Positions 7,836-53,170 are shown, counted from the whole stretch's first letter. The stretch: 63,918 nt of DNA, filler included, from Hausera hauseri (GCA_046269625.1; 11 parts of 11 records of this genome joined end to end with filler, not necessarily neighbours in it), one strand, 5' to 3'. Numbers and translations: made by a program. The notes: generated by a model not told the origin, from the sequence alone.

Positions 7836-7856
7836 TGGAGATTTTAAGTGACAGCA

Positions 7857-14044: not shown

Positions 14045-14233
14045 TCATCGGGGGAATATCGGAATAATCGGGTTGCCGTAGTTGGATTCAACTAAAATGT
14101 ACGTGCCAGGGGCTTTGGTAATTTCCTGTTGCAATTGAACGGAATACGGCACCACTTCAAATGAGACTTCAAGAAAGTGGAAATCTATTGTGTTCTTAAC
14201 AGATTTGGGGGAGACAACAGAAACTGGTAGCCC
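14045..14233 (-). CDS. Probable terminal exon of an unidentified gene; includes the right arm of the 77-nt inverted repeat
   Basis: 62-codon open frame GLPVSVVSPK...PIFPR* with AATAAA ~40 nt downstream (14000-14005). Confidence 0.4.
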   Translation of the reverse strand, partial: GLPVSVVSPKSVKNTIDFHFLEVSFEVVPYSVQLQQEITKAPGTYILVESNYGNPIIPIFPR

Positions 14234-14334
14234 ANNNNNNNNNNNNNNNNNNNNNNNNNNNNNNNNNNNNNNNNNNNNTTAATTAATTAANNNNNNNNNN
14301 NNNNNNNNNNNNNNNNNNNNNNNNNNNNNNNNNN

Positions 14335-18370: not shown

Positions 18371-18379
18371 TGCATGGTG

Positions 18380-20989
18380 GCCGAGTTTTCCCTCAAATGG
18401 CGTAATATTAAGATGCTGTCTTTATCCCTTTTCGATGCTGTCAAATAACATTTCATGGCAGAAAATATAAATACACCATCAATCGACTTACATTTGCGAT
18501 TTCCGGTTTGATAGCTCTCAATCGTGCGCCACATTCGTGTAACATCCTGGTAGTAATAGTACAACGCACAAACAGCCGGGAGTCCGTCTTGTCCAGCACG
18601 ACATGTTTCCTGGTTATCCCTCAACAGATGTCGGGATCGAGTAATGGGTAACGAATTTCACAACCGCTTTATCAGTACCCATACCAGGTGCAATTGTAGC
18701 GCAGAATACTTTGCAATTTTGCTCGTCCATCCGCATTTGTTGAACGTTTACTCGTACCCTATCAACCATACCGGCATGACATAATTTTGTTTTCAACCCA
18801 GCTTTGTTCAATTTGTTTGGTTGAAATTCAAGGTGCAACTTGAACGCGATAGCAGTGTCGGGTAAATCTTTCGTAATACTCGTGTTGGAAAACATGTGGA
18901 GTTCTTCGTTCTTGATATAATGAAAAGTATTTATCAATGCATTTTCAATGGTATGTTTCGCAGAGAGGTTAACAGAGTTTCGACAGTTCGATTTTACAGA
19001 AATAAACGAGACCGTAGTTGTCCATAACGGTGTAGTGTGGTAAATGTTGGGTAATCCAATTTAACAACCACTCGGTGAACTGAGTTTGGGTAGACTTCGA
19101 CTTTATATGAGCACTTTTTATCAATGCCTCGTTTAATTCTCTGCGTGGCATTTTTGTCAAATTCGGAGTAGAATTGCTGGACGTAACATTGGTGTTCATT
19201 AATCCCACTGACTTTTGTTCAGCATTATGCATCAAATCGCGTATGTCGGGATTATTTTCTTTACCATACAACAGTTTGGCATTAGCTCGTTTTACACTTT
19301 CAACAATATCCGATCGTGCAAGACCACAATCCAAATGCATTGTCAAAATCTGATAGAATTTATTGACTATCCGGGTATCAGAAATGTGCGAGATCAACTT
19401 AAACAACCATTCCGAAAAATGGTAAAGTCGCATTTGACTGGTATGGTTTTTTATCGGGGGCCAATTTGTTATTTGATTATACGATAATTCGCTAATGGTA
19501 AATGTCTGTTCAGAGAACTCTTCTGAGTTCATAAAATGTTCAGTTAGACAATATTTATAATGAGCGAGAACGTTTGTTGTTGAAAAACTCAAACAAAAGA
19601 ACAAATCCGTAACGACGTATTTGTACCCTGGTCCACTCAATTGGAGTGGAAACGAGTTCAAAAACAACGACGTTATGAAAGAGTTACCCAAATCCGTTGG
19701 GCTTGTGGTTGGAAATAGTTCGATAGATATTTGAGGTAAACAGCGAATCGTTAGTAAGGATTCATTTACGCTTGTTGAACTCGGTGAAGTTTGTTTTGTT
19801 AAATCTAGATGAGAATCATTCCAATTAGAACATGTTTTTGATTGAGGATTATTTATCCGATATTGTTCTCTCAGTAATTCAAGTTCGTTACAGCATCTCA
19901 CCTTGTCATGTTTCGCTTTCCGACGATTTTTAACGACAGGTTGAAATGGTTCTGAGTCACGATCTTCTGGCCGAGGTGTATTACTGTTACTGCTATTCCA
20001 CAATTTTATACACCGATACTCTGCCTCTGGACTACTCGTTGACGTGAGACCACGCATCATCGACGAATAGTCTCCATCTAAATTTTCAGTGCCACATTGG
20101 TTCTGTACCATGCTGTCGTAAGAAGGTTGAACCAAATGAAATACTTTGCTATCTCCAGCGTTTTCATCGTTGTTACGTCGACTTTGCAAGTATTTAGATG
20201 CGTCTGAATTTTCCGTCAATGCAAAGCATTGATCCATTTTTTGGTGGGTTCAGAAATAATGAATATGGCTGATCGAGCCTCTGCACGTTACGATTATCCC
20301 ATGGCATTGTTTGCTGAGCTCGATATATAGATTCAACTAGATTTTTTCTCGCCTTTTTATTGACTATCCAATAGGCACCTTTGCCAGGCTCGCCGTGCTG
20401 ACCATCACGTGGCATCCTCCGAAAAGATTTGTTGATGGATAAATTATGCCGCAGGGAATTCTTCCACGACAGACCAATGCGTTTATAATATGGATAATTT
20501 GCTTCAAACCCTTGGTAAATATCATTGACAGTCATGGCTCTGTCGCGACATATTTCGATTGCCATGAATATCAACTGGGTATAACTGAGGTTGGGTTTTA
20601 CAAAAGCATTAAAGCTGTGTTGATGCAACTGACCGCTACAGTGGTCCACATACGAATTACTACTGCGTAGTGCCGTCTGACTGCCGTTATTGACCATACT
20701 GTTGCGTATCACCTGATATCGGACAAAATCGTGCACGTGAGTTCTCTTGTGATTCTACTTCAACTTTCTGACACAAGAGCTGCGTGTCAACGAGATCGTC
20801 ATGACCGACCGGAGCAAAACTGTCACTGTGTTCCTTCACCTCATCCTCAACATCAAGAGGATCTATATCGATAATACTGTGCCGTTGGAGCCAATTCAAT
20901 GGTTGCAAATCCGAATTGTTCGTCATTTCGGCATTTTTCACAGCAATATTTTGAAAATTACTCCATGATTTTGTTAGATTCGCTTTCAA
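18380..20989 (-). pseudogene. Forkhead (FoxN/FoxJ-like) gene with a long unidentified C-terminal region; frame-broken
   Basis: N-terminal DLQPLNWL motif; forkhead domain KPNLSYTQLIFMAI...WKNSLRHNLSINKSF...GKGAYW in 20194-20736; abutting ORFs 18969-20237, 18614-18937 and part of 17869-18624. Confidence 0.75.
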
Positions 20990-21276
20990 ACTGAACAGTT
21001 TAAAAAGCAGTGCATTCTCATGAGAAAGAAGCGGTTCAATACTGGGATAACGTTGTTGGCTGCGTGCGCTTCCACACCGTCCACGTCATCGCCCAGCCAG
21101 GGTAGGGTTTTAAAATACCCGCCCTCTGGTATGTCTGCTGAATCGGAATTGGATTGTTTGAGAGTACTCATTGAAANNNNNNNNNNNNNNNNNNNNNNNN
21201 NNNNNNNNNNNNNNNNNNNNTTAATTAATTAANNNNNNNNNNNNNNNNNNNNNNNNNNNNNNNNNNNNNNNNNNNN

Positions 21277-21760
21277 GTAGCGAAGGATCAAAAGGATTGG
21301 GACGAATTTTTAGAAGGAACGCAATTTGCTATTAACACAACCCCACATCCCGCAACCGGATTTACACCGTTTTTCATGATGTATGAAAGAGAAGCCATAT
21401 TACGAACGGATTTGGGAATGACACCGTGTACGATAAATCCTGAAGACTTAAAGCAGAAGTGTTGGGAAATTGCAAAGAATTATCTCAAGAATACCATGAA
21501 CAATTTGAAAAACAGTATGACAAGAAAGATAAACTGCACGATTTAGAAAAAGGAGGTTGGGTTTATGTACATTACCCAGTAGCCAAAAAAGGCACATCAC
21601 TGAAACTTACACGTACTGGAAGAGTACCATACGAAATCACCAAAACCACTCCAATTACAGTTTATATTAACAAAATTGGTAGAGGTCGTGTTAGTGCAGG
21701 GAGTTGTCAAAACGGATAAGGCCGAATAAACTCTATAATCTGCATTCTAATAACAGAACT
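21277..21760 (+). pseudogene. Gypsy integrase C-terminal half with GPY/F-like module
   Basis: KDWDEFLEGTQFAINTTPHPATGFTPFFMMY...YDKK...KLTRTGRVPYEI. Confidence 0.88.
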
Positions 21761-21793
21761 CGGAATCGCAGAGAAATGAAAACTTCTTCAATA

Positions 21794-22950
21794 ATGGCTA
21801 GACTGATGTCATATGTGCAAATAGTCCTTGCACTATCACTAACCGCTTCATATGTACCGAGAGCAAAAACCCAATGGATGTGGGACTAACCCGCTGTAGA
21901 AGATATCTATGGAATCCACTAGAGCGGAAAGCGACAAGAACAAATCGAGAAGGAACAAAACGACTAAAAATTAGTCTACAATATGGATTGGAGTAAACCA
22001 TGCGCCTGGTTTAAGTCAAGTAAACCCCTTAGAAGTTACATAAAATTCACAAACAAAATCAATAGTGTACCGAAAATGTGTAATTTACATTACGGAATCC
22101 AGCAGAAATGTTGCAAATTACACTTCGGACAAACAAATATAAATTTTGTATGTACTACTACCACTTTTACGGAATTCAAGCAGACGTAGATTTGCAGTTC
22201 GAAATAACCATACCAGGACAAAATCAAATAAACGAAGTGAAACTTAGCGATATGACCTGAAGTACCGATCCACAAAAACAAATTTTGGACGATAATATAA
22301 TCGGAATATCCAAAGATATCAAAAATAGATGTGTCCAGATAAAAACCAATTCAACGCTAACCAGCGACAGATAGATCTCCATTCAGTTCATACAAATAAA
22401 GAAGTCAAACCTTTCAGCGAATTATTGTCATATCTGACACAGAAGACCCTGTCCGTGTTGTAAAGTACCGATTGGTCACGAATTTAAAAAACAATGTGAT
22501 CTAATATAAAATCCGACCCAACAAACCTAAAAAGTTATCCGAAAAATCGAATATGGAAAATTACTTTCGAGATAACTACAAGAAAACCGAATATTGATTC
22601 GAGTACTATTACTGAAGTCGTCACTTCGAGTAAAATTCCTGAAAGAGAATTAGAAAATATACCTATTAAGTATTTGAAAACCTCTTCAATCACCATAAGA
22701 TCGTGTTCTTCGTTGAGGAAAAATTAAACTATGATGCCAAAATCGACTGACAAACTTTACACACTAATCAAGCTGTAATGCTAAAGGGTAACTATGAAGT
22801 TAATTGTAATTTATTACAACCTCAACATGATTATAATCGAATTTCCGCAAGACAAAAGAGAAAACTCTTACATTTCGAACGTTGAGCGAAATTCACGCAG
22901 AATCATATAAAAGAACTAACACAGAGAATATAATTACAACTAATATTAAA
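21794..22950 (+). pseudogene. Env-position ORF: signal peptide plus Cys-rich region, decayed
   Basis: MARLMSYVQIVLALSLTASY immediately after integrase; multiple Cys; many stops. Confidence 0.45.
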
Positions 22951-23204
22951 ACGGAAAAATCGATTGAGTCAACGGCTCCGCGATTATATCAACGTTCGTT
23001 CTCTTAATGATAATCACGTCTTTTTATTTAGTTAACAAAAACTGCTTTAAACGTAATAAAAATCAAGGTGGAAAGGTAAGGGAAATGAAGGACCACGACC
23101 ATATTTATGATAGGATCGCCTGCCAACTACAGATCGGGTTTTCCTATTACAGAGATAACGTTTTACTTAGGCTTAATCGTTATTTTTATTTCAGAATTGT
23201 AAAT

Positions 23205-33527: not shown

Positions 33528-36500
33528 CTATGTAGCTGCTTTTTGGCTTAGGGTCTGAGTAGTCATTATCGTTTTTTTTTCACTTAGTTCACAATATGGC
33601 GAATTTTCATCAGTGTTAACCCTTTCCATAAGTATCTTCCTTTTCCACTTTGCGTCATGTCTTGCCAAGAAACAACTTGCTACCGCAGGTACTACAGCTA
33701 TTAAAATTTTCCAAGAACATCCAACTGCTGCGTGTATCCCATAGGGTTTACTAAGCGCTGTAAATATCGTACGTAACGCACTAATAATAAAATATATAGC
33801 TAAAAATCCTGAAGCCGCTTGACCGAAGTATAGGAATTTTCCCCACATCTTCTCCATGATGTTCTTTGTAACTTTCTTTAGATAATTCTTTCCCATCAGG
33901 TTCTCCCATTGAGGTGAGCCTTCTCCGTCCCACATGACTCTTCTGGTTAGTTCTGTTATCACTCGTTGCCTCTGTTGGGGGAACTATATCACTCGTCTAT
34001 AATCTTCTAAATTTTGTTGGGTATAGATTCCTCCTTGTGCTATTCAGGTTAGTGGCTGAAATCTTTGATTTCTTTGTAAGTTTATTAAACTTAATGTATC
34101 GGATTTTGCCATTATCTCTCTTTTGGGCATTCTTATCCACATTTTATCATCCATTTTAAACATCGGCGACATACTGAAAGTACAATTATCTAGTTGTGTT
34201 GGTTTAGGGTTAGCTTCCTATAATATCCTGGTTACGGGCAAAACATATCTAGGTTCTGCGTTATAGAGTACTCGTAATTCAGATGTACAATCCGTGGTGG
34301 GTCTTATCGTAACTTCTACTTTCTGACATTCTATACTTACTAGTACTTCACCCATCACTCTCCCAATTATTTCATCTACAAATGGCATCACTGTGGCTAC
34401 CATGTCAGTGTTGGTTATAACTAAAGCCATTTTGTTTCGTATTATTTTGTAATTTACTTTACATTCATTCATCAGTATTTCTCTATATAGGCTTCTGATT
34501 TATTTTCTGACATAGTTAATTAAGAAATATATTTTATTATCAAAGTATTGTGTCAACTTTATATCTTTCTTTCAACTTTCGTTTTTGCTCCGGGTATTTC
34601 TCTTGTTGAGAGAAAAATACCTTTATAATTAGTATTGAATATTTCTTCGCCACACTTACTCGCAATTCCCATAATTTTGAATCGCACCATATCTTCAGGG
34701 TTTTCTGAATATACTGTTGTGGCGACTTCTGTCATTTTCACTTCCTTCATTCCTTCCTTATACGTTGCCGTTTCTTTTTCGGCCGTTTTACCCACTGTCT
34801 TGTTAAATCTTCCTTCTTTTAACATCGTTAGATGGCATTTGTCTTTGGATGTATCCCATGTTATCTTTGATTCACCAGTGTCGCACTCGCCATTGGTGTA
34901 TTCACATTCACTCATTGTTGTCATTAGTTTAGATTGTGAGTTGAATAATGCTTCGTATTCTTTTAACTGAATTTGATAATCTTCAATAGCTACTGTTCCT
35001 GGGGCGATTATACCTCCGACATGATGTCAGAGGTATAGTGCCTATCACACGCTACCCTTGTACGCACAAAAACTTATTCAAAAAAAACGTATTTATTCAA
35101 TCTTTTCTTTACACTTTTTCAACTCAACCACGGGGCGTATTCTAGTGCCTATCACACGCTACCCTTCTGTCCATGTATTTTTTATTTTTGTGTTTTCCAA
35201 TGTAAAGTTCATGTACATAATTTTATGAGATAAGATGTTGTAAATTATTTCATATTGTGAAGTTTGTAACATATTTTTATGGCGTTATTTTGTGTTAAAA
35301 ATTTGCTTTTGTTCACAATGATTTCTCACCTTAATATATGTATATAAACATATGTCATTTTGCTTATGTTTAATAATGCCGATTAAGAATATGAAAATTA
35401 TTATACTAAACAACTGCTGGGGGTTCATGGATAAAAGCCTAATTCTATTAACTTCTTGATTTTATGGTGTAAAAGATTTTGTTTTAAATGCACAATATCT
35501 GAGATCGAAAGTTAATATAGTTTTGAACGTTTTTCAATAAATGTTAGAAAGTTAACATGCCTTTCCTTTTTGATAATATAATAGAGACCGATGGACAAAA
35601 GCATACATTATTAGTTATGATGTATTATAAAATTTCCACATTACAGAAAAACGACGGTATGTTGTTTGTGCAGAGAAATTTGGTAGATGACATTTCGATG
35701 CACCAACAAAACTTGGTTATGAATTTTGTATTTTTTGACATTCTTACCTGCATCCAAGGATCAGTGTCCGATACATTCGTACTTCAATCGTACTACAATC
35801 TTAGCTTACCCCCACACATTTACCTTCCCTCGTCTTATCAATTTTTCCTATCCTAAAGATTGGAGTATATTTCATATTATTCCGTACTGCTGGTATTTTT
35901 GCATTCTGAATTGTTATTGTCCCGATCTTGAAGGCATCTTGACATTCCTCTCGCGCGATTATTATTGGTTCAAAAGGCGTTGTTGGTTTGATGATGGCAG
36001 AGGTCCCTGAATAATATGCACAGTTAAACAGGAAAAATGATTTCTTCACATAACATTCTCTGATTTTAACTTTTATGAATTCCGATTCTTGGTGGATCCA
36101 ATACCTATGACCGCTCGTAGTTATTAAGTGTTCTGGGTCAGCTTCTGGACATTTTTCTAAATCGACCAAGGAGTATTTTTGTCCTTCGTTTGGCTTTGAG
36201 CAGTCGTAGGCTGCTATTCCCACAGCTTTCGGCATCAACAATGATATTATCATTAGTATCTGTAAGATTTCCATTACTGACATGCCCGTTATACTTTGCC
36301 TGGAGGGATGTATATTTGGCTGTGTGGTGGTTGGCGTCTCTGCCCGTTTTCCACTTCCTTCTGGCCTCATTGTGTTTGTCATCAAGCTTGATAACCATCC
36401 ACCTCTTCACTGAACCCAATTCCCCAATGTATCCTTCAATATCTTAGTTACTGTTTTAATATTTCGGTCGATTCCTTCCAAATTCTGGATTTGGTGATTA

Positions 36501-36640
36501 ATTATTATTACTTTGTATAGCAGATAGGCCATGGCCTTTCGTGCCTTTTATCGAGTGCTACCGGTTGCGAACATTTTCTCTAAGGTATCCTGTTCATGTA
36601 GTTCATTGATCCTTTCTTCACTAATATTTTTGTAAAACTG
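33528..36640 (-). pseudogene. env: Chuvirus-like (class III) envelope glycoprotein plus the C-terminus of upstream ORF-X; split by an insertion
   Basis: Signal ILQILMIISLLMPKAVG then IAAYDC...YSLVDLEKCP; GRVMGEVL...C; PVTRIL; TM KMWGKFLYFGQAASGFLAIYFII; colinear with 44190-46092. Confidence 0.8.
35025..35800. mobile_element. ~780-nt AT-rich insertion in env, with a 24-nt direct repeat
   Basis: The env frame breaks after GKCVGVS and resumes at HVGGIIAPG; TAGTGCCTATCACACGCTACCCTT occurs at 35036-35059 and 35143-35166. Confidence 0.6.
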
Positions 36641-37920
36641 TCGACTAATTCATAACATATTATTTCATAGCGTCTGAAATACAATTTCTGATCTCCTGGG
36701 TCCACGGAGTAATCCACAAGAAAATTGTGGCTGGTTCGATCGAAGATATTCTTTTTCTATCGTTTTCCAAATGGTTTTCATTTTAAAGACATGCAGGCAG
36801 GCTTTCAGACACAACCTTTCAAACAGCCTGCAGGACTGCATTCCATATAGAGGTGGTGTTCGGTCACGGATTCATCCGAACTCTTAAGACGTTTAGGGCC
36901 ATCTAGGCAGAAGCTGCGCTTGTTGCAGATGCTTTCCTCTTGGTAATTTGCTCCAGTTTTGAATAGAATGAAAGAATCTGAAATTAAAAGTGGCTTTACA
37001 TCAAAAGTAGTTGTAGAGTAGCTTTAATCTACAATTCAATCACGGTGCTTAAGGACTGTTCTGCCTTTCAAGCTTCGGCTNNNNNNNNNNNNNNNNNNNN
37101 NNNNNNNNNNNNNNNNNNNNNNNNTTAATTAATTAANNNNNNNNNNNNNNNNNNNNNNNNNNNNNNNNNNNNNNNNNNNNACAAAGACAAACGCCAAATG
37201 AACACAAAGACCTGGACTAAATCATTGATGTTACATTATCTTTGATGGTGGATGATGATCACCAGGTTCATGCATTTAATTGTAGAATTTTTGTTTTTTG
37301 TATGAACTGTTGCTGCTTAGATATTACAAAAAACACACCACAAAGTTGCGTATAGGCTTGCATGTGGAAATGATGAGTAATGTAAAAGATCCAGCAGAGC
37401 CGAGACAACACAGACGGACGGGATTGCAAATGCAGGAACCCATCAGGCCACTTTCTAATTTTCCATTCTTATAGTAAAAACAGCAGATTTGTGTTTACGC
37501 TGAAACAAGCTTTTTTATTGGATGAAAGTTCAGTTGAGTCTATTTAATTACTTGATTTAAAATAACTGTAATCATAATGCTGTTAACTCACTGTGTCTCT
37601 GTTGCATTATACCACTGAACTTCCTGTGCTCCATGCTCCACCCTCCCTTCGCCCAATCGGTGACACAGCAAACATACGAACGGGAACCCTGACAGTTCTT
37701 CAGTTGACAAATAGTCCAGTGTAGCACCGGAGCACACTCCAGGGCTCAGAGCTATGCTTTATGAATACACCTGTCACTGTGTTTACTATGAATCTGCTGT
37801 AACACAGGATCAAGGGCACAGTGGTGATTGGAAAGTGGGGATTTAAAAAAAGTGTTCTGCCTGGTGTCTGCCATCACATAAAATGACTGCAAGCAGATGT
37901 ATGACTCTAGCTTGATTTAA

Positions 37921-40900
37921 GGATTTCTACGAGGGAACAGAGCACCCTTACCAATCAAGTACGTTAAGGAACAAATCGAAGACGAATTACCTGGTATAAA
38001 TGATTACGTAGATGATCGTGAAATATGTAGTATAATTAATTATAATTTAACTTTATACGAATGGTTCGGATTGGAACTAGCAAAACAATGTAAAGGAAAT
38101 GTGTATATACCATGCATTACCGCTTATTCAATAATGGAATTGAAGAATAAGTTAGATGACGAAGCGTTACAAATAATAGAAGAAAAAGAGATTAAGGTCT
38201 TATGGAATAAATACTTAGAACGAGATTTAAATCAAGAACTATCAAAATAAAATTATCAAGATATATATTCATTCTGCAATGTGAATGCTGAAGGACTAAC
38301 CGGTCGAATAAATGCCATACGATACCGCCTAATATTTTGTTCATTACCTATACCAAATGAGAAAGCGAAACTCTTTAAATTGAAAAGAGAAAGACTAATA
38401 TCCCAGAGAAAAACAATTGTACGAAACCGGTTTAACGATCTGGTGAAGTTTGCAACTAAATCCCTTACTTTAGTAACACCCATGTTTATACTATCTCACT
38501 TAATCAAGAAAACGGATGCGAAACTGATTACCAACACTACCATACCAGTTAACAAACCAACGATTCCTTCAATTTCCATATTGAAATATACCGTTTCCGC
38601 AGTAATATAAACACTTTTGATTAGCCTTATAATAGGAGCAGTAATATTCTTTAACAAGAGGGTTAATCGATATAAACGATTTAATTCCACTGGACGAGTT
38701 ATACTACCAACAACTAGCGGATACATAATTGGAAGCAGTTTGATACCCATGACGGAAGCTGGAATCTGTAATAAGGAGATATACGCTTATAGTCGAGCCA
38801 TGGAAGTGACGTCATTAGCACTACTAATAGTGGTCATTTTGGCGATAATTAGTCCCATTGCTATACTGATCAGGAGATCGTATAGAATACGGAAAGAAAC
38901 AAAGAGGGAGAAACAATTAATGTTGGATATAGAAGCAGCAAAGGAGGATCCACCTCCAAAATACGACAATATCGTAAGCAAACCCCCATGTGTTTATAAA
39001 CGATTGGTAGTCCCTATGGCTCTGTCAGCGCTCAATGTAACCACAACTGAGGCAAATGAATTCGATTATGCAATTATTACAACATTACCGGTTGTAGATT
39101 ATAAATCATTCCTATTACTAATGTTTTTAATAGGACTGGCCAGTAGCACGATAGTTGCACTAATAGCGGTAATACTTTATAGATTATGCCAGATAGTAAA
39201 ACACTCCAAAAGAACAATCAAACACCTACCACCTCCTGACTATGAAGAGAATGAAAGAAATTATACTAGACCCAATCCAATACTTTTGTCAACTTTGGTA
39301 ACATGTTGCCTAATAAGTGGTTGCGCTGCTCAACCTATCAATGCCAACAAGATGGACTATGCGAAGTATGTAAAATTTCTATTGTACATATTGGCAGTGT
39401 ATGCAGTCGAACAGCTGACTGAATTAATCCAGTTTGCAAGAATGCAATGGGAAAAGAAAAAACAGGCTAATAGAGAAAGATTCTTAGGTGAAATTTCAGA
39501 CATAATAGTCCCGAAAATAGTATTCAATTATATGATATCCGAGATAGAGATAACCGAAAACCAATGGTCAAAGGATCCTTATATACAGCGCTTATTACAA
39601 GAAGCATCAAATAATCCTACAAAAGAGACGATAAAAAGCCATACATGGCCAAGGGCAGAATTGGAAAATATACCTTGGATGGATAACAAAGAAATATAGA
39701 GGGAACTTAATAGAATAGCCATAGAACGGTACATTATATCGAAAAATAACATATTTAAACCAATAATTGATACTATTTTAATAGAATTTGGAAAAACATA
39801 TGAGGAAGTATCAGCAGAAGATAAGTTCCTACTATTAAAATCATGTGATACAATAAGAAATAATGAAATAACCAAAGGAAATACTTGGGACAATTCATCC
39901 TACCGAAATATAACAGCAATAATAAAAAGATACAAAGCATATAAGAAAAATGAAGTAGAACGATCAATCGAAGTTAATGAAGCAACACATCTATTGCAAA
40001 TGCTTAACAAATTACAAGAATCGGACACAAATGCAGAAAACGAAGTAGTCAAATTAAGACAACAATACCCAAAACAAAATCTACATGAAATAGTACATTC
40101 TCTCCGCCAACAATATTCGAAAAGTTTGAAAACAGAAAATAATGAAATCGAATCAATCAAAGAAATGGTAGAAGAATCAGACATGGAAGTGACCTATAGG
40201 CAAACTTGGATACGAATATTTTTATGGGAAATCAATAGATCTCCAGATAAACGACAATCTCCTGAGTATCAGTACTTGAAATTGCATATTTATAATCCTG
40301 AAAAACAATACTTTACACAAGGGGATGCTTGTGCTTTTAAAACAATAGCACTAGAGGCCCAACAATATTTGAAAACAAACCCTCTTAATCTACATGCAGG
40401 AGTTTTTACATCTTTTATTACTTGGGATATATCCTTATATCAATTACTTAATATAGCTTTATGCAGACCTAAACGATTAAAAATTTCAACTCATGATAAG
40501 GAAATCCTTAGAGAATCAATGAAAGATTGTGGTAACGACCATATAATTAATGGATTGTGGACACATAAAATTCAAAACATCGAAAACAATACTGAGGAAT
40601 ATAAGAAACTTATATGGATAGATTGGTTATTATGGGAGGCCGGATTAGAACACGAACCCCTCACGATAGAATTAATTGAAGTAGTCACTGACATTATGGA
40701 AAAAACAGAGTATTACAAGATATTAGTAAAATCAAATTTACAAACACTGGAAGAACTTCGGCATGAAGTAGAAATATTGTATGATGAACACCTTATAGAC
40801 AAGTTAGCGATAGGAATAGTGCATCTTGATAGAGAAAGGTTAAGAGCACAAAGTAGATATCTTTATAATACAAGAATGAGGATAAACAGCGACATGCCAC

Positions 40901-41285
40901 AATTGCAAATGGAGAAAGAGATTTATGAAAGAAGTCAATATCCTGAAGCTGTCTATAGATTACGAATACGCGAGTACTACGATAAGAAGATCATAGCATC
41001 AGCACATAAATACGGTTATGATAAAGAAGAATATAGAAATAAAATTTGGACGACTCGCCTATTACATCAGATAAAAATACACAAGCCTACTATAAAGCAG
41101 TATGCACAAATGTGTTTGTGTATTAAAGCGTTTAACAACACTAAGTTAGAATTCCAAGGCTATTCCAGGTGTTCCAGATATAAACGAATGACCCAAACCA
41201 TAATTAAAGATTTTAATAAAGGGTTTAACCAACCAACAGAAGGAACTAAATCTGAACAACAGACAATGCTGAAAAAAGCTCAAAA
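37921..41285 (+). pseudogene. Very large unidentified intronless multi-TM polyprotein (>1100 codons, a few in-frame stops)
   Basis: ORFs 38281-38610, 38617-39699 and 39994-end share one frame; repeated hydrophobic segments; PPPKY at 38950-38964 and PPPDY at 39229-39243. Confidence 0.7.
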
Positions 41286-41479
41286 NNNNNNNNNNNNNNN
41301 NNNNNNNNNNNNNNNNNNNNNNNNNNNNNTTAATTAATTAANNNNNNNNNNNNNNNNNNNNNNNNNNNNNNNNNNNNNNNNNNNNCTGGATAACTCTATC
41401 CTTTCTTTGTTCTGTTGAGATTTTAATTGCTTTGTCCATCGTTAAGGTGCGTTGACGATCTATTATTTCTTCCATTTGA

Positions 41480-43565
41480 CTTTTCTTCATTACTGTAATC
41501 GGCATCTACATGTTTATTTCCTGGCTTATACTGGAATTAGATTTTCTTCGATTCACCTGTTTAGTCTGCACGTCGGGTTATTTGCTCGACCCTTTAAAGT
41601 CGTGAGGGCTTTGTGATCAGTGACAATTATAATTTTCTGCCCATATGCGTAAGCGTTAAAATGTCGAAGTGCTTCTTTTACGGCTAGAGTTTCTAATTCG
41701 GCAACAGAATAATTTTTCTCGGCCTCCTTCAAAGATCGTTCTCCATAAGCAATTTGGTGTTCTAATTCTTCATCTTCTCTTTTTGCGCTAATTCTTATCC
41801 AATGCCTTCTTTACTGGCATCTGTCTTGATTATAAAGGGTAAATTAAAGTCTGGATAACGTAAACCAGGTAGCTTGTTAATATTTTCTTCATCTCATCAA
41901 AGGCTTTCTGTTCGACATCCGTCCACTTCCATTTAATTCCTTTTTTAAGCAGACGATATAAAGGTGCATTAATTTTTGAATTATCTGGTACATAAGTGGC
42001 GTAATAATCGCCAGTGCCTTAACTCTTTCCGGTTCTGAGGTTCCATGCAATCTGATATTTTGTTTATTAACGATTTATCTGGTTTTGATCCTCCTTCTTC
42101 AACTATATGGCCAAGGTAGGATACTGCATTCTGGGTACATTTACATTTCTTCGGATTCAGTTTCAATCCGGCTTGTTCTAAACGCATCAGTGTATGTTCA
42201 ATGTCTTTCAAGTGTTCTTCTTCGGTCCTCGACGCTATCATTACGCCACCTAAATACGCAAAAACATGGTCCAGTCCTATTAAAATTTTGTTCATCATTC
42301 TCGTAAATATAGCTGGTCCGGTAGTAATACCGAACGGCATGACATTAAACTAGTAAACACAATCGCGCGTTTTGAATGCTGTCTTATAACAGTCTTCGTC
42401 CTCAATCTCTACTTGCCAATATCCGGATTTTAAATTCAGAGTGGTAAACCATTTCGCTCCTGAGAGTCGATCTGAAGCCTCTTTTACTGACGGCAATGGG
42501 AAAGAATCTTTCATCATAAGATTATTTAAAGCTCTGTAATCGATACAATATCGGTGTTTTGTAGTGGTTTTCTTTTTAACCATAAGGATGAGTGAGTACC
42601 AAGATCTATAACAGGGTCTAATTATGTCTGCTTTAAGCATACGTTCAACTTCTTTTGTTATCTCGGGTCTTAGTGAATGTGGCGGAGGGTACCATTTTGG
42701 CATCTTCTGGTCCTCCAAGTCTATTTCGTCGTTTGAACAAGGCTTTTTCTTAAGTGGAATAGTCAATTTCAACGCTTTTGCTCTACAATATCTTATTCGT
42801 CCTTAGCGATAATCGATTTGTAAAGGAATAATAATTCGTATAATCGACAATAAGATTTAGGAGAGAACTTAGTTTCGACATGAGGTGGAAATTCGTCATA
42901 CATATAAGGCTTTTCTTCAATAGTTATTAATGATACTCTATACCTATCTCCTAGAGTGGTGTAAAGATGAAGTTTAGCGGGAGTTGGTGCATTATTCGCT
43001 ATTCTAATCGGTACACGACCGGAATGTACTCTTGTCAGCACGTTACTGAGCGTTATATTTGGGTTCAATGTTTCCTTTGGTTCAAAAGATACCGGCTGAT
43101 CGTCATCTTGCTGAATCTGTGCGTAAATTATTATCTCCGTTCTCAGTGGAATATTTTCGTCTACTGGTATCCACAATTCTCCAAAATTCCTATCCTTAGC
43201 GTTCCTTACACCTTTATTTGGTCTAATATCTATGAACATCCGTGCTTGTAAGTCGATTGCTATATTTGGTAATCTTTTTGGCAGATCGCATCCTAGGACG
43301 ACGTCGTCAGTTAGCTGTTCCATAATCCCAAATTCGTGACGGAATGTTTGCCCAACTATTTGGACTTCTGGGTTCCATTTAAACATCGGTTTTGACATTT
43401 GTCCAAAAGCTCCTGTACTTCCTGATACTCCTCTTAAATTTGAGATATTGAATCATTTTTGATATAAGACATCTCAGAACCTGTATCTATTAATGCATAA
43501 ACTTCTCAATCTTCGATAATAATTTTAGCGAAAGGTTTTCCTTCTATGACTGTTCCGAAACAGTT
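41480..43565 (-). pseudogene. pol: pol (PR-RT-RH), decayed
   Basis: ALIDTGS (DTGS at 43476-43487), YCIDYRALN, LKSGYWQ, MPFG, YLGG (degenerate YxDD), TDAS, NYSVAELETLA, TDHKAL, YKPG. Confidence 0.9.
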
Positions 43566-44189
43566 TTATGCTATTTTTGGGCGTTTTGACACCGATATTT
43601 CATGTCCATTGATTCGGATCTGTGAGAAGGACACTATGTTCTCCGCCAACTGCCTTAATTCACCGTTTGGATACAGTTTATTATTTTCGATACTTAATCC
43701 TGCCGCTTCATCAGTACTAATTAACGGTTCTCGATTGTTGGTGTGTAACTCGGTGTTCTGGAAGGTTTTTATCCTAGGATTATCCCAGACCATCGATCTA
43801 GTTTCTATATTCTTAGGTCTTCTCGAAGAATATAACAACTTGGGATCGTCCATGGAATGTCGATAACATTTTCTGTAGGATTCCGTACCGTTTCGTTCCT
43901 TCATAAGGGTCCTCTACATTAATGGTCCTTTTATAGATTTCAGTCTGATATGAACTCATGGATCGTTTGTCACAGTCTTTATAGAACGGAGCAGTCGGAA
44001 GCAACATAGGCAAGGGTACTTTGATGACCGAGTATGTCTTATGTCGATTCATTCCTGGCAGTGCCTTTCCTCTCTTAGGCTCATCATCATCTGAATTATT
44101 TCTCTGCGTATTACGTTTTATGAATTTCCGTTTGTACAAGAACGTAGACCTTCTTTTCCGTTTGCGATGATAATAACCAATATGGCGTT

Positions 44190-46092
44190 CTACGTCCGAT
44201 TTCCATTTATTTTCTTTGTATGTTTTAAGAATTTTCCGAAGAGCGTTATAATTGCAGTCAGTATGTTACTTGAAAATCTAGTCAATGTAAATATCTCATA
44301 CCCATTTATTACTGCTTGGATGACTGCTTTGATCATCTGTATCAGGAAATATATAGCTAAAAATCCGGATGCGGCTTGTCTGAATATTAAAAATCTTCCC
44401 CACATTTTGTAAAGTATTTCCGCTGTTACTCGCTGGTAATGGTTTACACCGAGTAAAGATTCACATTTAGCTTGATATCTGGTGTCGGCTACTACAGAGG
44501 CCATGGATAGATTTAATTCATATGTCCGCTATCGCGGAAAAGCGAGAAATTGTCTCAAGGCTTCGATTTACTTCGGCCTGTATATGCCTTTCGACAAGGT
44601 ATCTTAAAATTTATCGTCTGTAATTCCTTTGCAAGATTTGTTTCTGTTAATTTATTTGGAGCAGCAGTAATACCTCAATTTAGTAAACTAACCCAGTCTG
44701 TTTCACTGCGTCTAAACAAGGGCTCTCCTAAGCTTGCTTTACAATCTTTAAGAATGGTTGGTTGCGTCGCGTTATCCAACAATACTCTTGTCAACGGTGT
44801 ATCTAGTCTTGGAATGTTCTGATAAATAACGGGAAGTTCCTGAATACAACGTTTTTCTTCCACATTTATGGGTACATCTCTCTTTTCACACTCATAAGTT
44901 AACAATACTTTGCCCGTAACTCGACCGAAAATTCCTTCTCTTATAGGAATTATGGGAGAAGCTAACTCTCGGTTTACATATATAAGAGCCAATTTAGTCC
45001 GCATGATTTCAGTATCCAATTTGCAGTCATTCGTTATAATTTTGTGACATAATTTTGTTATTCCGACTTGTCCTTTGTAATAGAAGTAATCTTCTCGGTT
45101 TTTTAGGTAATCTTCAATTTGGATATCGCGTTTCTAATTTGTAAGTTTTTGCATTTATTTCCATTTGGGCTACGAAGAACGCCTCGTAGTTTGTGGTGAA
45201 CATTACTACGTCACAACGGGACATCATCTCCTTTTTTATAAATTTCAGTCCGTGCTAATCTGAGATCAATATAGTGGGTGTAGGGTGTTCTGATACATCT
45301 TCGCGTGCCTCAGAATTAGTCTCAGATTTGTCCACATAACGCTTTCCGGTAGTTTCACTAAACTTTAACTCCCTAATTTTAACAAAATTACAGCTTCTTC
45401 CAGAGGGAGGTTGTTATATTATAACAGAACTTCTAAAAACACAAGTTTCGTCTTGTAAGTGGCATTTTTGATTCTCGGTGTATAACTTAGTGACGCTATA
45501 AAACATCACCTTCTGCGATTGCATCTCCGACTCGTAAAAATCCACGACTACCATGTTAGATTGTAATCCTTTTTCGGTGTCATATTCTGCTCCGTAACAA
45601 TGTCCTCTATGCATATCTAATCTTCAAACACTACTTTGTTTGCCTTAATTATCTTTCCGGTTGCATTTCCAATTGCATACTATCCCATTGTATCCTTCCA
45701 GTTTCTTTAGCATGCTTGCAATGTTGACGCTCTAAGTTCATTGGGATTAGCGGAGTTGTCGGCTTGATTATGGAGGAATGTCCGTGTACTAACTCACAGT
45801 GGAAAATACTATGCGATCGTCTCAGCATGCATTCCATTCCATCTAACGATATCAATTCTTGTTGTTGGTACAGGAAGTAATTTTTCTCTCTTGTTTCCAA
45901 CTTGTGCGGTCTGGCATCTTCGCATACTTCCAGATCCATTAGAAAATATCTCTGTCCTAGTTTAAACTTATCGTAGTCGTAAACAGTGACAGCGCTTATG
46001 TGCTTTACTAGCATCACCAAGGTGAATAGGCCGATTAACCAATTTGACTCATTTTTCCCGTGGCCAACATCCGTCGTTGTTAGATTGCGCAA
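44190..46092 (-). pseudogene. env: Chuvirus-like envelope glycoprotein
   Basis: Signal WLIGLFTLVMLVKHISA, VYDY..LMDLEVC, IIKPTTP, GRVTGKVL..C, PLTRVL, KMWGRFLIFRQAASGFLAIYF. Confidence 0.8.
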
Positions 46093-46149
46093 TATATTGT
46101 CGAGTCGATTACAGTTCCGTCTGTCTTCTTCCTTGTCGAACAGTCTCGG

Positions 46150-47570
46150 CTAATTTACTTCGCAGGGCAATCTTCTTGCTGCTTTCCGTGCTAAGCTTAT
46201 AGCTCTATTGATTTCATTTTTCCGGTTCGGGTTTATTTTGATAGCTAAGTATAATAATACTTTTTTCAATTCCTCGTTGGTGTTCTCTACCATAATCCTT
46301 TCAATTACCGATTCATCAGTTAAGTTACTTTTCAATAGTTTGAAACGTGAACTTCGCATCATTTTAGCTGCATTGAATATAATCTTCTCTTTATCATCTA
46401 ATACATCACGTCGAAGACTGGAGTAATTTACGATTCGTATTAGATTCTTCATTAACTCGCTTAATTCCTCATTGTCTGTACGGAGAGTCGGAATCGATAT
46501 TTGTTTCAATTCTCTGATCAATTTTCCATTATAATCCGGTTCTCCTCGCGTTTTCTTGGGTCTACCTACTGGGCGTTTCGATCTCGGACCCTTAGTGGTG
46601 GTCTCACTCAATGGTACTAAATTTATGTCGTATTGTTCCTTATCCTCATCCGTTTGTAAGTATTCAAAATACATCGCAGCGTCTCGGACTCCCATAATTT
46701 GTTCTACGCATTGTTCCGTTTTGGCCTTACGTGTACCTTCCTCCTTTGTCTGTTCATTAGATATTAATGCCACTATCCAATTTGTCTCGCCGGGAATAAT
46801 CCCTACATTTATTGGCTGTTCTAGGTCATCAAGTATTCTGCTTCAAAAATAAAACCTGTAGTTTAACTCGTTTGTTTCGCCGTTGTTTAGCAGCTATTCT
46901 CTTACGTCTCTCACATAGGAATAAGTAGTTAACTCACATTCTTTTTCGTCCATCCACTCGGATGATATAATTACATTTATCGTCACTTCAGGTTTAGCCC
47001 TCAATATTTTAGCGTATTTCCTTATCAAAAGTTTCGGCACCGTGCTATAAATCGTATTTTCGCTACATAATTTAGTTAATGTCGGAATAAGTTGCCTTAA
47101 CGTACTTTCACTAATATTTACGTTAATTAATTCAATTAAATCCTTTTCAATTTGCGCTGAATCCAGGAGCATCTCCATATTGAATCTCCTGTCCTGCGGT
47201 CATGTTTCTATCTCGTTTAGCTGTACTGGAGTCAGGGATTTTTCGGCAATTATTGCATCGAAGTATGCATCCCATTCGGGTTCATTTCCAGCTTCAGGAA
47301 ATCCATGGTCTATCAAAATGGTCTTTGCTCTCTGTACATTTTCTCTGATTTCCTTCAATCTTGGTTGTATTTCTATCATCTGCGTAGTTCGGAAACTTAT
47401 GACGTTTCCACAGGCATACTGAATCAATTTCGGTAGCTCGCCCAATTCATTAGGATCAACGAATCCTTTTTGGTGGTAATCCGTTAATTCTATAATTACA
47501 TCTCTTTGCCATCTTTGTACAAATTCTCGTTTATTTTTAATCTCTGACTCAGTAAGAGCATATTTGTTCT
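46150..47570 (-). pseudogene. ORF-X, unidentified helical protein in frame with env
   Basis: ORFs 47200-47445, 46894-47178, 46150-46773 and 45649-46092 are all in the same frame. Confidence 0.65.
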
Positions 47571-48891
47571 ACAATAATATAATTCAAATATAGCAAGTTC
47601 TATAAATAATATAACTTAATTCTATAATGCAGTCTAATTACAACATCATGCATAATAGATTTAAGCTATTTACAGCTTAATCTATTGTTGGCTCCGCTTA
47701 TTGTCGTTCCATCTACATTTTATTTTTATTTTATTCAGTATCATGTAACGATCATTATGTTACACCCATTAAAAACTTGTTATCTATATCATGTAGATAG
47801 TTATCAAATATAGATTCCGAAAATATTGTACTTGACAAATCCGTTTTATCTCGCCATGGATATCAGTCAATTACATAATCATAGTGGTGAATAATTAATC
47901 GAAATTCTCATTACACCAATCAACTTGACCTCCTACAAATAAGGTGCAGATAATCAAGTTACCGAACCACAACCGAGCTTGCAACCTAATGAGTTGAGTT
48001 GCTTTGCAAACTACAAAGAAAACTACCACGACTGCACCTATTGGGAACGAGAGGCATGTGATCAAAGCGGATTATCATTGACGTTTCGACATAATACTGA
48101 CTCGTATCATGCGCCACTTAGACACTTGAAACTGATCATTCAATTACTTTTATTCTACAATTGAAAAATTATTAAAATACTTATAACAAAATCATCAAAA
48201 TACGGTTTGAAATTTTTACGTAAGGGAATATTCCGTTGTATTCAGGAAACCAAATGGCTCAGAACTAGTAAGAAACAGAAATTAATCTTGATTTGATTGA
48301 TGGTCGCAAGGGTCATAATACCATCGTGGATAATGTTTTTCATTTCATACTATTTGCGTCAACGATTATTACAAAACCCACTCACATTAGTTGGAACTAC
48401 TAGAAAGTATAGACTATCGATTCCTCCGAAATTGTTCGTATGCAAACATAAGCCCATTGTATTCATCAACCTTTAAATTTACTACATGCATAAAAATGAT
48501 TTTCTATATTGGTCGTACAAATAAATGCAATTTTCTAAAGTATAGTTCTTTGTATAATTCGTTTATGTAATGATACAAAAAGATTACGAGAGATAATATA
48601 TTATTACAATCGAACCGAAGGTAACATACTATAAATTATTATAAATTTTATTGTATTTTAGATGGTGTTGATTCGATAGAAACAACGGTTTTGCGTTATG
48701 GTGTAGAGTTACGGAACCATACCCAGTTGTAATTTTGTCAGATATGATAGATCTATCGGAATGTCATTTATCAATATATTGATCCAAATTGATTAGGTCC
48801 TCGCAAAGATAGTAGACACACCGCACGAACATGGTCTTGTTTTAGGTAATGAATATTGTTGCGAGTAATTTTTTTACCATAATAAAGAACT

Positions 48892-49341: not shown

Positions 49342-49699
49342 NNNNNNNNNNNNNNNNNNNNNNNNNNNNNNNNNNNNNNNNNNNNTTAATTAATTAANNN
49401 NNNNNNNNNNNNNNNNNNNNNNNNNNNNNNNNNNNNNNNNNCCAGTATCCCCTCAACAAGAAGGAAACGTCAAGCATTCACAAGTCTTGACGAATACATC
49501 CGAAACAGTGCCTAGCAGCAGATGCAACAGCAGGAACCTTCTATTACTGTCAAGTACAATCTAAACAAATCGTACGTGGACATGAAAGTAAACGTGTCGG
49601 GGACAACAACACTACAGCTGAGGCATGTTCCGCCAGGATGCGCAGTCCGTTGGAATTAGAGGTGGAGAAATTCCTATGCAACAACTGCAAAGTGCAATA

Positions 49700-52600
49700 T
49701 TATGCATTTGAAGAATTTGAAAACGTTGAAGGTGGCAGGAAACAATAGTATCACATCGAGCTGTACTGTATTCGGAAGATTTTATTGCCGATGTAGGCGA
49801 AAAGTTGGATGAGAAAATCGCCAAGTATACCGAAAAGGGTAGTGGATGGCGAATTATACGAATTGTCATATTCCGCTTTATCATAACAAAGTCGAATGAC
49901 GTGGTATATTTGTCTGGACGGTCATTCATATTGACACCTGCATCTCTAAAGCAGTCTCTGGCGGTAGTGAATGTACAAAATACTGACGACAAATACTGTT
50001 TTCTGTACAATATTCTGGCTGTATTTAACTACAGCGAAGTGAACAGATATCATGCAAATCGTCCAAATCAGTATCGGCAGTATTTTTGCGAATTGCAATT
50101 TGATGAATGCTGGATGCCGATGAAACTGAAATCCATTCCGGCTTTTGAACGGCGTAATCCAACGCTGTCAATCAACGTTTTCCGGTACAACACAATAATT
50201 GAAATACCGGAAGACGAAGAAATTTATAAGAACCCTGATATGGACATAATTTATCGTAGTCGGAACCCGAATGGACCCTCGGTAAATTTGTTGCTGTTGG
50301 AGCAAGCGGAAGAATTTCATTATGTGACAGTCACAAATCTGGATAGACTGCTGAACATGGAGCAGGATCAGTTCATCAAAAAGCTAATACGATGCACATG
50401 GTGTCCTGTATGTCTGCATGGATTCAGATCGGAAACAACGTGGGCGAAACATGTCACGCAATGCAGGTTAAATGCATCAGGGACAACAATGTACGTCATG
50501 CCCGTCAAAAAGGAGCTCAGATTCAGTGAATCGTCTAAAACGGACAGTCCGGCATATGTGGTATATACCGATATCGAAGCAATTCTACCACGGCATAATG
50601 TATACGATAACAACCATGTTCCAATTGCCGTCAGTATGTTGCTAGTACCAATAAAAGCCGCCGGGCAACCGCAGTATTACGTTTTCTATGGTTGGAACAG
50701 TGTACGTGATTTCCTGCAGCAGTTGGAAACCATAGTGAAAACGGAAATCGCTCTGTGGTATCGCAAAAATTGCAATAAGCCATTGATTTAGGCAGAGAAA
50801 TATCAAACGTTTCTTTTTGCTGTCATTAATAAATGCTATCTGTGCCACAAAATAATACAGTTTGATGCACAGGAACGGCTCGTACCGGATCACGACCATT
50901 TCAGCGGTCGATACTTCGGAGCAGCATGCAATTTATGAAATTTAGCAAGCCGAGTGCGACCATTCCTTCCGGCTATCTTTCATAATTTCCGAGGTTATGA
51001 CTGTTACCATATTCTGAAATTGGCCAGTAAAGGCCTTCTGCATGGGAAACTGTCCATAATCCCAACGACAATGGAAAAATACTTATCGCTGTCGTCACGA
51101 GTAAGCCAATTCCAGGTACGCTTCCTTCATTTATTGCAATTTTTCAATGAATCATTGGCGAAGCTGGTAAATGCCTTGCCAGATGTGCCAATAGCACTGA
51201 TGCAGTTCCCTGTAAATATTGCACGCAGCAAAGGCATTTTTCCATATAACTTCACAACATCATATGAGCGACTCCGAACAGCAAAGGAATTACCGCCGTG
51301 ATGGATAGGTATCGCAGAGGATGAATATCGGAGAGCATAAGAATCTTGGACAGAACTGGGATGTAAAAACATGTTTGATTACATGCTCCAGTATCTCAAA
51401 CTGGACGTGTACTTATTAGCCGACGTGTTCAAAGCATTTCGGACCGAAACGCTAGCGAAAGGTAGGTTGAAGCCACTCAACTTTTATTTCATACCGGGAA
51501 TGAGTAGGGCGCAGCTCTAATGTCGCTGGATCGAGACATTGAGCTACTGCAAGACCCGGAAATGTACCGAATGTTTGGTATTATTTTCGGCGGCATGACG
51601 TTTGTCAACAAGCATAAGGTCAGTGCTACCGATATCACATCACTGCTGTATATTTATATTAATAACCTGTACGGCTAGGCGCTTTCACAACCCCTGCCGT
51701 AAGGTTCATTTGAATGTGTAGTCGACAGAAAAGATCTGGACGATATAATCGTCAACCTACCACGAGCAGACACGGCAGGCTTAGTCGGATACTTAATGGA
51801 GGTTGACCTCAAGATACCAGATGAGCTGCATGATGTTTTGGACGATTTACCGGTCGCACTATTTAACCAATGTCCGCCAGGCTCAAAACTGAAGAAACTG
51901 CTAATGGCGCATGCACCGAAGCGGAATTACGTTGTCCATTGGCGTCTGCTACAGTTCTACATGCAGCTCGGTGTATATGTCACACAGCTACATCGTGCAA
52001 TACGATTTGCTCAGGCACCCATATTCAAGGCGTACATAGATGGAAATTGGGAGAAACGAGCCGCAGCTTGTAAAAAGTTCAAAAAGGACTACTAAAAGCT
52101 GGAAAACAATTCCATATACGGAAAAACAGTGGAGAGTTTGAAAAAGCGGCTCAATGTGTGCCTATGTAACTCGGAAAACCAGCAAGACACAGTTTCGGAA
52201 GGTCAATGCATATTACTGACCGATTGGTTGCGCTGCTGTCAAACAGGGAAGAAGTCGTTTTGGACCGACCAAGTTACATCGGACAAGTAGTATTGGATCT
52301 GAACAAGTTACGGATGTATGAGCTACAGTATCGCAACCTGACACGTTACCGGCAAATGCTTGACGGCTGCAATATTGACATAATTGCCGGTGACACAGAC
52401 AGTTTTTACCTACGGCTGGAAAAAGTCAATAGCAAACATCTACTGCAGCAAATGCAGTCAGATGGATTGCTGGACACGTCCAACCACCCACCGGATCATC
52501 CGTTGTACAGCAGCGCGATCACCAATAAAATCGGCCGCTTCAAGGATGAAAGTTAAGGTCGCGTTCGGTATCGGGAATGGATATTCCTACGCCAAAAGTG

Positions 52601-52832
52601 CTACAGTTTCCTGACGGACTGTGGACCAAAAATGCGGACAAATGGAATCCAGCTTAGACAGACGGAAACCGGCCACGGTGATCATCGCCATATATATGAA
52701 GAAGAAAAAGGAAAATCATTGACTGTTGTGTCTCAAACGATCATCCGATCAATTGAACACCATCTGTACACAATAACTAGTGCGAAAGTCGCTATGTCAT
52801 ATAACGATGATAAGCGAAGGTGGGTGGGGTGA
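49700..52832 (+). pseudogene. Polinton/Maverick protein-primed DNA polymerase B
   Basis: KGSGW, VNVQNTDDKYCF, DHDHFSGRYFGAAC, FHNFRGYD, KGIFPY, DVYLLADVF, NNLYG, KLENNSIYGKT, DTDSF; stops and frameshifts. Confidence 0.93.
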
Positions 52833-53170
52833 AATAAGAATTGGGTGTAGGGAAATTGGCGGCTCAAATAAACGCACGTCCAAACAATCGGTGCTCTGCC
52901 TGTTCAGACAAATCAGTTCAGTTCAGTTCAGTTACTGTGACAATCATTGAAAATTATCCGATGTATATTGTTTTTTATATTTCAATAACGTATTTTGTTC
53001 AGTGTCTTTTGTGTTTTGTTTTCGGTTACTTATTTAACCTATTATTATTAAGATACAACTAAAAATAAAACAATAACCTTGTACGAGAAAACAAAATATG
53101 TAACACGAATACATTTATTTATTGGTCGGAGAAAAACATCACAAAAACGCAGTCAGTTATCATCATCGTA

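Follow-up and report, generated by a model that had tools for sequence, protein, structure and literature searches.

A decayed, multi-copy reading frame with tandem PPxY-bearing membrane units, probably accessory cargo of a Burro-type retroelement

Burro elements count among the largest known retroelements, with roughly half of the coding space lacking annotation. In planarian Burro (also GYPSM1), which occurs in thousands of copies, env lies in frame between BCL2 and the protease; half of the 4,873-residue open reading frame (ORF) 1 is unannotated, accessory ORFs exist (also upstream), and decayed fragments occur in some species (PMC6431247). The known cargo is rich in ubiquitin and apoptosis regulators (PMC6431247, PMC13465017), and one Burro element reportedly protects the stem cells of planarians (PMC13465017). 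GAG-ENV-POL elements have been surveyed in flatworms, nematodes, and bryozoans, with no long terminal repeat (LTR) listed for six of six Schmidtea rows (PMC13524379). Here we describe a decayed ORF of 1,121 codons at 37921–41283 on the plus strand of a 63,918-nucleotide stretch of DNA, filler included, from Hausera hauseri (GCA_046269625.1; the window). The ORF belongs to a diverse multi-copy mobile family and carries four membrane units, two of which are duplicates bearing PPxY motifs; we regard a Burro-type element as its probable source.

The locus is like Burro in its high copy number, its very long frame, its stop-bearing decay, and a putative link of its cargo to ubiquitin and apoptosis control, and neighbouring contigs share the Burro order of Bcl-2-like domain, env, protease, reverse transcriptase (RT), and RNase H. 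It differs from Burro in that Gag, CCHC, AIR1, Smc, MATH, Ubi2, BIR, ankyrin, BCL2, and env were not found in the ORF, and the Burro text describes no array of signal, transmembrane (TM), basic, and PPxY elements (PMC6431247). Errantiviruses of flatworms, nematodes, and bryozoans with a gB-type env share their gene order with the env-pol contigs of the window and with a related locus (L001, below), but the text of that survey annotates only gag, env, and pol and leaves flanking accessory regions undescribed (PMC13524379).

Other described systems resemble single units of the array. The herpesvirus proteins UL56, ORF0, UL42, and U24 are small membrane proteins with a cytosolic PPxY and little mutual sequence likeness; they are separate and tail-anchored, whereas here the units stand in tandem in one frame, with the helix before the motif and predicted lumenal N-termini, so that the likeness would be one of working and not of homology (PMC5849660). 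The sORF2/FAST-like proteins of the MDG1 group (about 60–110 residues) share a short ectodomain, one strong TM helix, and a juxtamembrane polybasic patch, and their genes stand before or behind gag-pol in gypsy elements, but they are stand-alone myristoylated ORFs of env-less elements, and a PPxY or a signal-like spacer is not described for them in the text of the report (PMC11952523). The ORF3 proteins of bdelloid LTR retrotransposons are likewise accessory membrane ORFs without known homology, downstream of pol, but are single ORFs of 210–230 residues where we find a repeated array in a frame of more than 1,100 codons (PMC5408684). The Troyka LTR retrotransposon (compact gag-pol without env, internal part under 7.7 kb; PMC12440569) was considered and set aside, as the ORF is not gag-pol and related neighbours carry env. 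In the literature covered, no TM-PPxY array was found in Burro or gypsy elements; Grohme 2018, Lee 2026, Sacco 2022, Jurka 2007/Repbase, and Fig. 2A of PMC6431247 lie outside that coverage and may already map the ORF. The array itself is real; it would be a variant, probably not described before, of the accessory cargo that giant retroelements of a known kind carry.

The ORF occupies most of one 4,105-base contig (37181–41285) and runs for 3.3 kb without introns. Its internal stops, at 38248, 38608, and 39697, compare with 88.6 expected from base composition and with 35–115 in the other five frames. An earlier sequence-only reading had reported one frame of over 1,100 codons with about four stops; the length stands, and the stops number three. 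The frame is open at both ends, its 3' end being lost where it enters gap spacer at 41286. Eleven contigs make up the window, a eukaryotic scaffold with an identical 100-base spacer at each of its 10 joins, so the order of contigs may be arbitrary. The parts of the ORF are as follows.

37921–41283, plus strand: decayed long ORF fragment of 1,121 codons with three stops, cut on the 5' side by unrelated DNA and on the 3' side by the contig end
37866–38002, no strand: left edge of the repeat family as present here, placed approximately; a step in summed depth falls within this bin, and a flanking piece from public run X4 (below) ends at about 37850–37880
37921–38445, plus strand: N-terminal non-membrane region, broken by the stop at 38248
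38446–38520, plus strand: signal-like segment A, ending T-D-A, with putative cleavage; absent from the earlier list
38521–38682, plus strand: unit A, with a 24-residue T/P-rich outer piece carrying a glycosylation sequon, a helix broken by the stop at 38608, and a basic patch; without PPxY
38698–38760, plus strand: signal-like segment B, ending T-E-A; with a best 10-residue hydropathy of 1.43 it is weaker than the other three
38761–39054, plus strand: unit B (98 residues), with an 18-residue outer piece, helix at 38815–38871, basic patch at 38872–38913, PPPKY at 38950–38964, and the next signal-like segment at 39004–39054
39055–39330, plus strand: unit C (92 residues), duplicate of B, with an 18-residue outer piece, helix at 39109–39180, basic patch at 39181–39225, PPPDY at 39229–39243, and the next signal-like segment at 39274–39330
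39331–39483, plus strand: unit D, with a 12-residue outer piece, a weaker helix at 39367–39417, and a basic patch at 39439–39483; it would anchor the long tail
39484–41283, plus strand: hydrophilic tail of about 600 residues, interrupted at 39697 by a stop and still open where the contig ends, without a relative or fold match

The four units fill residues 176–521 and have a common layout, in which an uncharged hydrophobic signal-like segment is followed by an outer piece of 12–24 residues, a membrane helix, and a basic patch. Strong hydrophobic helices lie at residues 225–244, 299–317, and 397–420 and a weaker one at 483–499, and behind each of the four stand 4–8 lysines or arginines within 15 residues, a positive-inside pattern that also reproduces the TM-then-polybasic arrangement of sORF2/FAST-like proteins; no unit begins with MG, and all are internal to one frame, in contrast to the stand-alone myristoylated ORFs of that class. 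Every second hydrophobic segment is shorter and weaker and has a small-X-Ala end (after residues 200, 280, 378, and 470, with small residues at −3 and −1), and the cores of all four of these signal-like segments are uncharged. Three of the four ends read T-[ED]-A. These are the sole three such words in the ORF, against 0.4 expected, and three are reached in 0.75% of 20,000 shuffles, with the pattern having been picked post hoc. Of the helices, D is the weakest, and of the signal-like segments, B. Thus the helices with polybasic patches and the three signal-like segments of the sequence-only reading (after residues 280, 378, and 470) were found again, together with a fourth of each kind.

The same reading had taken the whole unit, PPxY included, as the repeat. 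The layout does recur in four units, but sequence repetition is confined to B and C: units A and D are without PPxY and have no significant similarity to other units (z 0.1–1.8), so that the full unit is present only twice. Judged by their alignment, B and C are true tandem duplicates. Their pairing was the best of 136 window pairs (z 6.1), and the alignment score of 74 (z 4.8–9.4) is reached in 0–2 of 2,000 shuffles, also with local shuffling or with the PY motif masked; at the DNA level the likeness is weak (z 2.3). PPPKY and PPPDY are both present as first reported, 26 and 16 residues past their helices, beyond the basic patch and on the predicted cytosolic side. Among 20,000 shuffles, at least two PPxY arose in 0.3% and two PPPxY in none.

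Binding of PPxY to the WW domains of NEDD4-family ubiquitin ligases is established for the motif, and cutting by host proteases is familiar from the polyproteins of flaviviruses and alphaviruses. The alternation of signal-like and stop-transfer helices, with positive-inside patches, suggests that the intact chain would thread the endoplasmic reticulum (ER) membrane co-translationally. Host signal peptidase could then cut after each small-residue site, releasing hairpin membrane proteins of 80, 98, and 92 residues, each with a short lumenal N-terminus, a membrane helix, a cytosolic basic loop, and a residual signal helix, while unit D would stay in place and anchor a cytosolic tail at least 600 residues long. 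The duplicated units would show PPPxY in the cytosolic loop and draw NEDD4-family ligases to membranes, where these might reroute or degrade host membrane proteins or aid particle trafficking, in the manner of UL56-type proteins. From the −3/−1 residues and hydropathy we think cleavage rather likely, and we lean to about the same degree towards functional NEDD4 binding. A signal-peptidase-processed array, as first proposed, is a fair reading of four regularly placed −3/−1 sites, though the segments are mostly less hydrophobic than the env signals of neighbouring contigs, which they otherwise resemble.

That last point also bears on an alternative in which the same element leaves its membrane region uncut, as a multi-pass anchor of up to eight segments with PPxY loops and a long cytosolic tail held at the membrane, any processing being left to the element's own protease. 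Such an anchor would suit the very short outer pieces (12–24 residues), and cleavage is predicted solely from −3/−1 residues and hydropathy. It would leave without explanation why alternate segments are shorter and weaker, with small-X-Ala ends, three of four of them T-[ED]-A, and why the env genes of neighbouring contigs likewise open behind internal segments of this kind; we consider it unlikely.

The products might instead serve particle exit or cell-to-cell spread, through a PPxY late domain, as fusogens of the sORF2/FAST-like kind, or as viroporins of the p7/6K type. The hallmarks of sORF2/FAST include a short ectodomain and a TM helix with a polybasic patch behind it (PMC11952523), and the family probably has env and must hence bud. 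Yet the units form no stand-alone short ORF and have no initiator MG myristoylation motif, and such elements already possess a fusogen in env. A late-domain role, which the sequence-only reading had assigned to PPxY, is possible, but the motif sits in the loops and short tails of membrane proteins and not in Gag, for which Pfam gave no match in the ORF, and membrane-bound NEDD4 adaptors fit better. On this evidence a role in exit or spread seems rather improbable.

Parts of the stretch recur in ten public runs with ten organism labels, none of which shares half its words; no RNA data set is among them. Contigs were matched from four of the ten (X1–X4), the shares of X5–X10 being small, and numbered 7,192 in X1, 1,460 in X2, 48 in X3, and 50 in X4; likeness among those of X1 and X2 spans 80% to more than 99%. 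The X1 contigs are diverse: 638 match at 99% identity or more, 1,450 at 95–99%, 2,700 at 90–95%, and 2,404 at under 90%. Summed depth in X1, which is not equivalent to copy number, is 0–3 over 37181–37865 and 3,744–22,982 from 38003 on, and X2 has the same step. Because this step coincides with the start of the frame, the edge of the element lies there, and the copy is cut at its 5' side too. The flank at 37181–37880 is a different, low-copy sequence, spanned by one 1,164-base contig of X4 and by hardly any of X1–X3; a six-frame Pfam search of it gave no match above noise.

The matching contigs also bear signs of coding constraint, which we treat as indicative, since they come from the 38 best supported among 936 differences and from the 32 pieces listed, mostly the longest, out of 8,771. 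Of the 38 listed in-frame differences (stop codon excluded), 16, 5, and 17 fall on codon positions 1, 2, and 3; the synonymous ones number 18, where 10.5 ± 2.7 would be expected (p 0.006). Substitutions outnumber gaps by 902 to 2 in 7,081 bases of the ORF (29 listed pieces), compared with 72 and 26 in 1,037 bases of the flank (3 pieces). The stop at 39697 is missing from nearly all matching contigs, and those at 38248 and 38608 are not among the 40 listed of the 936 differences.

Multi-copy contigs, excess synonymous change, and almost no indels indicate that the ORF comes from a diverse multi-copy mobile family and not from a single-copy host gene, the finding that the sequence-only reading had named as fatal to its view. 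A check of copy number and of synonymous against nonsynonymous change, which it had also called for, gave thousands of contigs in X1 and X2 and a synonymous excess, within the limits of sample and depth just given. The frame is long, and short TM-plus-PPxY adaptors do exist in animal hosts, as a single- or low-copy host gene would have it. Thousands of divergent X1 and X2 contigs, the sharp depth step at the frame start, 3.3 kb of intronless sequence with three stops, and the lack of a homolog in protein-set searches make such a gene extremely unlikely.

Which mobile family the ORF belongs to is suggested by its neighbours. The window is rich in mobile elements, among them compact gypsies, two gypsy pieces with env, and one element with a type B DNA polymerase (PolB), and both the X-Env-Pol contig and the 33.5–36.8 kb contig encode a Monjiviricetes-type fusion protein (mononegavirus-type env) before protease, RT, and RNase H. 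Judged by their sequence, the X-Env-Pol neighbours are Burro-type GAG-ENV-POL retroelements. By eye, the window env resembles the planarian Platyhelminthes_C1a rows of PMC13524379 supp2, where four of the seven places with 'QES' fall in planarian rows; from this likeness and a weak Bcl-2 match we infer a planarian-like host.

The first of these elements (41386–47580, minus strand) is a decayed X-env-protease-RT-RNase H element, with X and env in one frame and an internal signal-like segment between them; X has no Pfam or protein-set match. The second (33528–36775, minus strand) has the weak Bcl-2 match (E 0.034, below cut-off) directly before its env signal segment. A further contig (21277–23200, plus strand) holds an integrase C-terminus and then decayed A-rich frames, with a signal-like segment at about 21800 and a TM helix with basic patch at about 22980.

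Codon use in the ORF correlates with that of the env-bearing pieces of the window (r 0.87, 0.84, and 0.64) and of L001 (0.90), compared with 0.66 for a further gypsy, 0.48 for host-like frames, and 0.25–0.32 for the compact gypsies and PolB (PolB itself 0.31), and the nearest codon-use group was env-bearing in 982 of 1,000 bootstraps. The endogenous virus or giant retroelement first proposed as a source thus narrows, by copy number and codon use, to an env-bearing giant retroelement, while the sequence link to ORF-X that had been offered for it is lost. An origin in some other family of high copy number, be it a different retroelement, a Polinton-like element, or an endogenous virus that was amplified, with Burro-type neighbours a coincidence, would account for the missing linkage and homology to every Burro part compared; contig joins with identical spacers, the PolB element and further gypsy families in the window, and a planarian nidovirus with a giant polyprotein (PMC6211748) are in keeping with it. 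The distance in codon use from PolB and the compact gypsies, the lack of a match in viral contigs or viral folds, and the signal/TM/basic units of Burro-type relatives speak against it, and it seems improbable to us. A Burro-type source is likely.

L001, one related locus among 144 pattern matches of an env-based scan, contains at 403–11781 an apparently intact, compact Burro-like element with one gag-env-pol frame of 3,184 residues, comprising CCHC knuckles, a weak UBX match, env, protease, RT, RNase H, and integrase. Past the integrase follow a signal-like segment, an ectodomain of about 270 residues, a TM helix, and a basic patch, then one stop, and after it an in-phase 607-codon frame that opens with a signal-like segment. 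That second frame resembles a degenerate DEDD exonuclease by eye, without a Pfam match. A five-residue motif occurs in L001 at the RNase H/integrase border (7492) and directly past the integrase (8965), a candidate site for the element's own protease; a loosened form, written after the place had been seen, matches the ORF once (residue 67, window about 38119).

Membrane units of this layout thus lie behind the integrase in both relatives in which the region is visible (L001 and, decayed, the 21277 contig), and given a Burro-type source we favour, with reserve, a position downstream of integrase over one upstream of env. The sequence-only reading had instead made the ORF the 5' part of the X-Env-Pol polyprotein, leading into ORF-X. 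The A-rich sense strand and codon use are shared, and the half-unannotated Burro ORF1 (4,873 residues) and upstream accessory ORFs (PMC6431247) would leave room for such a part. However, the match cited to the start of ORF-X covers 13 residues with a score of 30 (z 0.8), which 189 of 1,000 shuffles reach, the level of chance, and the frames lying upstream of X and of the second env gave no match to the ORF either. The ORF points at the RNase H end of the next contig, which lies convergently on the opposite strand, contig order itself being uninformative, and the L001 region between gag and the env signal has one marginal hydrophobic window, no other strong membrane helix, and no such units. 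We judge the 5' placement very improbable.

A Burro-type source and a 3' position have several points against them. An A-rich, AT-rich composition could explain most of the likeness in codon use, which for a further gypsy also reaches 0.66. A Burro-type element would be LTR-bounded and about 30 kb long, and the fragment here would amount to 3.4 kb of its interior. The whole ORF against X-env gave z 1.5, which is not significant, and a Pfam search of the ORF fragment for Burro marker domains (MATH, BIR, Ubi2, ankyrin, BCL2, and others) found none. Matching contigs give no informative extension past the stretch and hence no physical linkage to env or pol. The L001 membrane units are without PPxY; the ORF has no significant similarity to the L001 post-integrase part (z −0.9) or gag-env linker (z 0.1), and the best L001 junction match (p 0.005–0.024) was one of 12 comparisons and is lost after correction. 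The accessory ORFs known upstream in Burro (PMC6431247) count against the 3' placement. Contigs from X3 and X4 are few, and X4 has no depth step (22–25 in the flank, 0–21 in the ORF). The limits on summed depth and on the constraint samples, and the weakness of signal-like segment B, belong with these points.

With these weighed, our reading is that a Burro-type retroelement of high copy number (GAG-ENV-POL, Ty3/gypsy), resident in a planarian-like host, would have encoded an accessory polyprotein, and that the ORF would be a decayed, doubly truncated piece of it. The joint proposition of Burro-type source, signal-peptidase cleavage, and NEDD4 recruitment, whose parts are mutually dependent, falls a little short of an even chance. 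Doubtful, though worth stating, is the wider idea that Burro-type elements carry behind their integrase an expandable cassette, grown by duplication, of mini membrane proteins released by signal peptidase to act as NEDD4-family adaptors. If true, cleavable membrane-bound ubiquitin-ligase adaptors would be a new class of Burro cargo and a route to manipulating host membranes, and a retrotransposon would be using a flavivirus-style host-protease polyprotein strategy, with host-membrane-remodelling factors beside its known anti-apoptotic cargo. The in-frame membrane extension behind the L001 integrase suggests that a 3' accessory zone is general and is passed over in surveys of gag, env, and pol. 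These implications are tempered by a copy that is broken, unlinked to env or pol, and without a detectable relative.

Relatives and folds were sought widely. Pfam gave for the ORF a best E of 0.004 (DUF3169, below cut-off) and no family match for the N-terminal region at 37921–38445. In a set of 5.8 billion proteins, none of 5,222 candidates matched the tail part (near-length proteins), none of 3,646 the membrane part (longer proteins), and none of 7,848 X-env (longer proteins); among 1.84 billion representatives, the tail part, the only query there, had no match. The ESM Atlas, queried with both ORF halves, and an exact look-up gave no usable match, nor did viral contigs searched with env queries, and metagenome and viral contigs searched with the ORF gave none. 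Two PDB sequence searches returned zero matches and two matches (E 0.09 and 0.5). The long helical region claimed for the tail was not confirmed: its basis is single-sequence models with a mean predicted local distance difference test (pLDDT) score of 42 and 37, the second of which begins with strands. Fold searches on these low-pLDDT models gave no clear match (BFVD best E 0.12; PDB best E 0.46, with several GNAT rows), and a VIA-align search (best Z 6.7 and 5.8) was uninformative on fold. Other internal repeats in the tail reached z 2.9 at most. Viewed by eye, the tail also raised the idea of a degenerate exonuclease, which was dropped, as no search supported it.

Elsewhere in the window, the 100-base spacer carries stops in every frame at all 10 gaps. 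Inverted copies of the same 77 bases stand at both ends of one contig (7759–7835 and 14158–14234). At 49622–52862 (plus strand) lies a Polinton-like sequence that combines a decayed type B DNA polymerase of the protein-primed kind with an endonuclease VII-like segment, and at 18969–20868 (minus strand) a frame with a forkhead domain (E 2e-27) adjoins an intronless frame with a weak ORC3_N match (E 3e-05).

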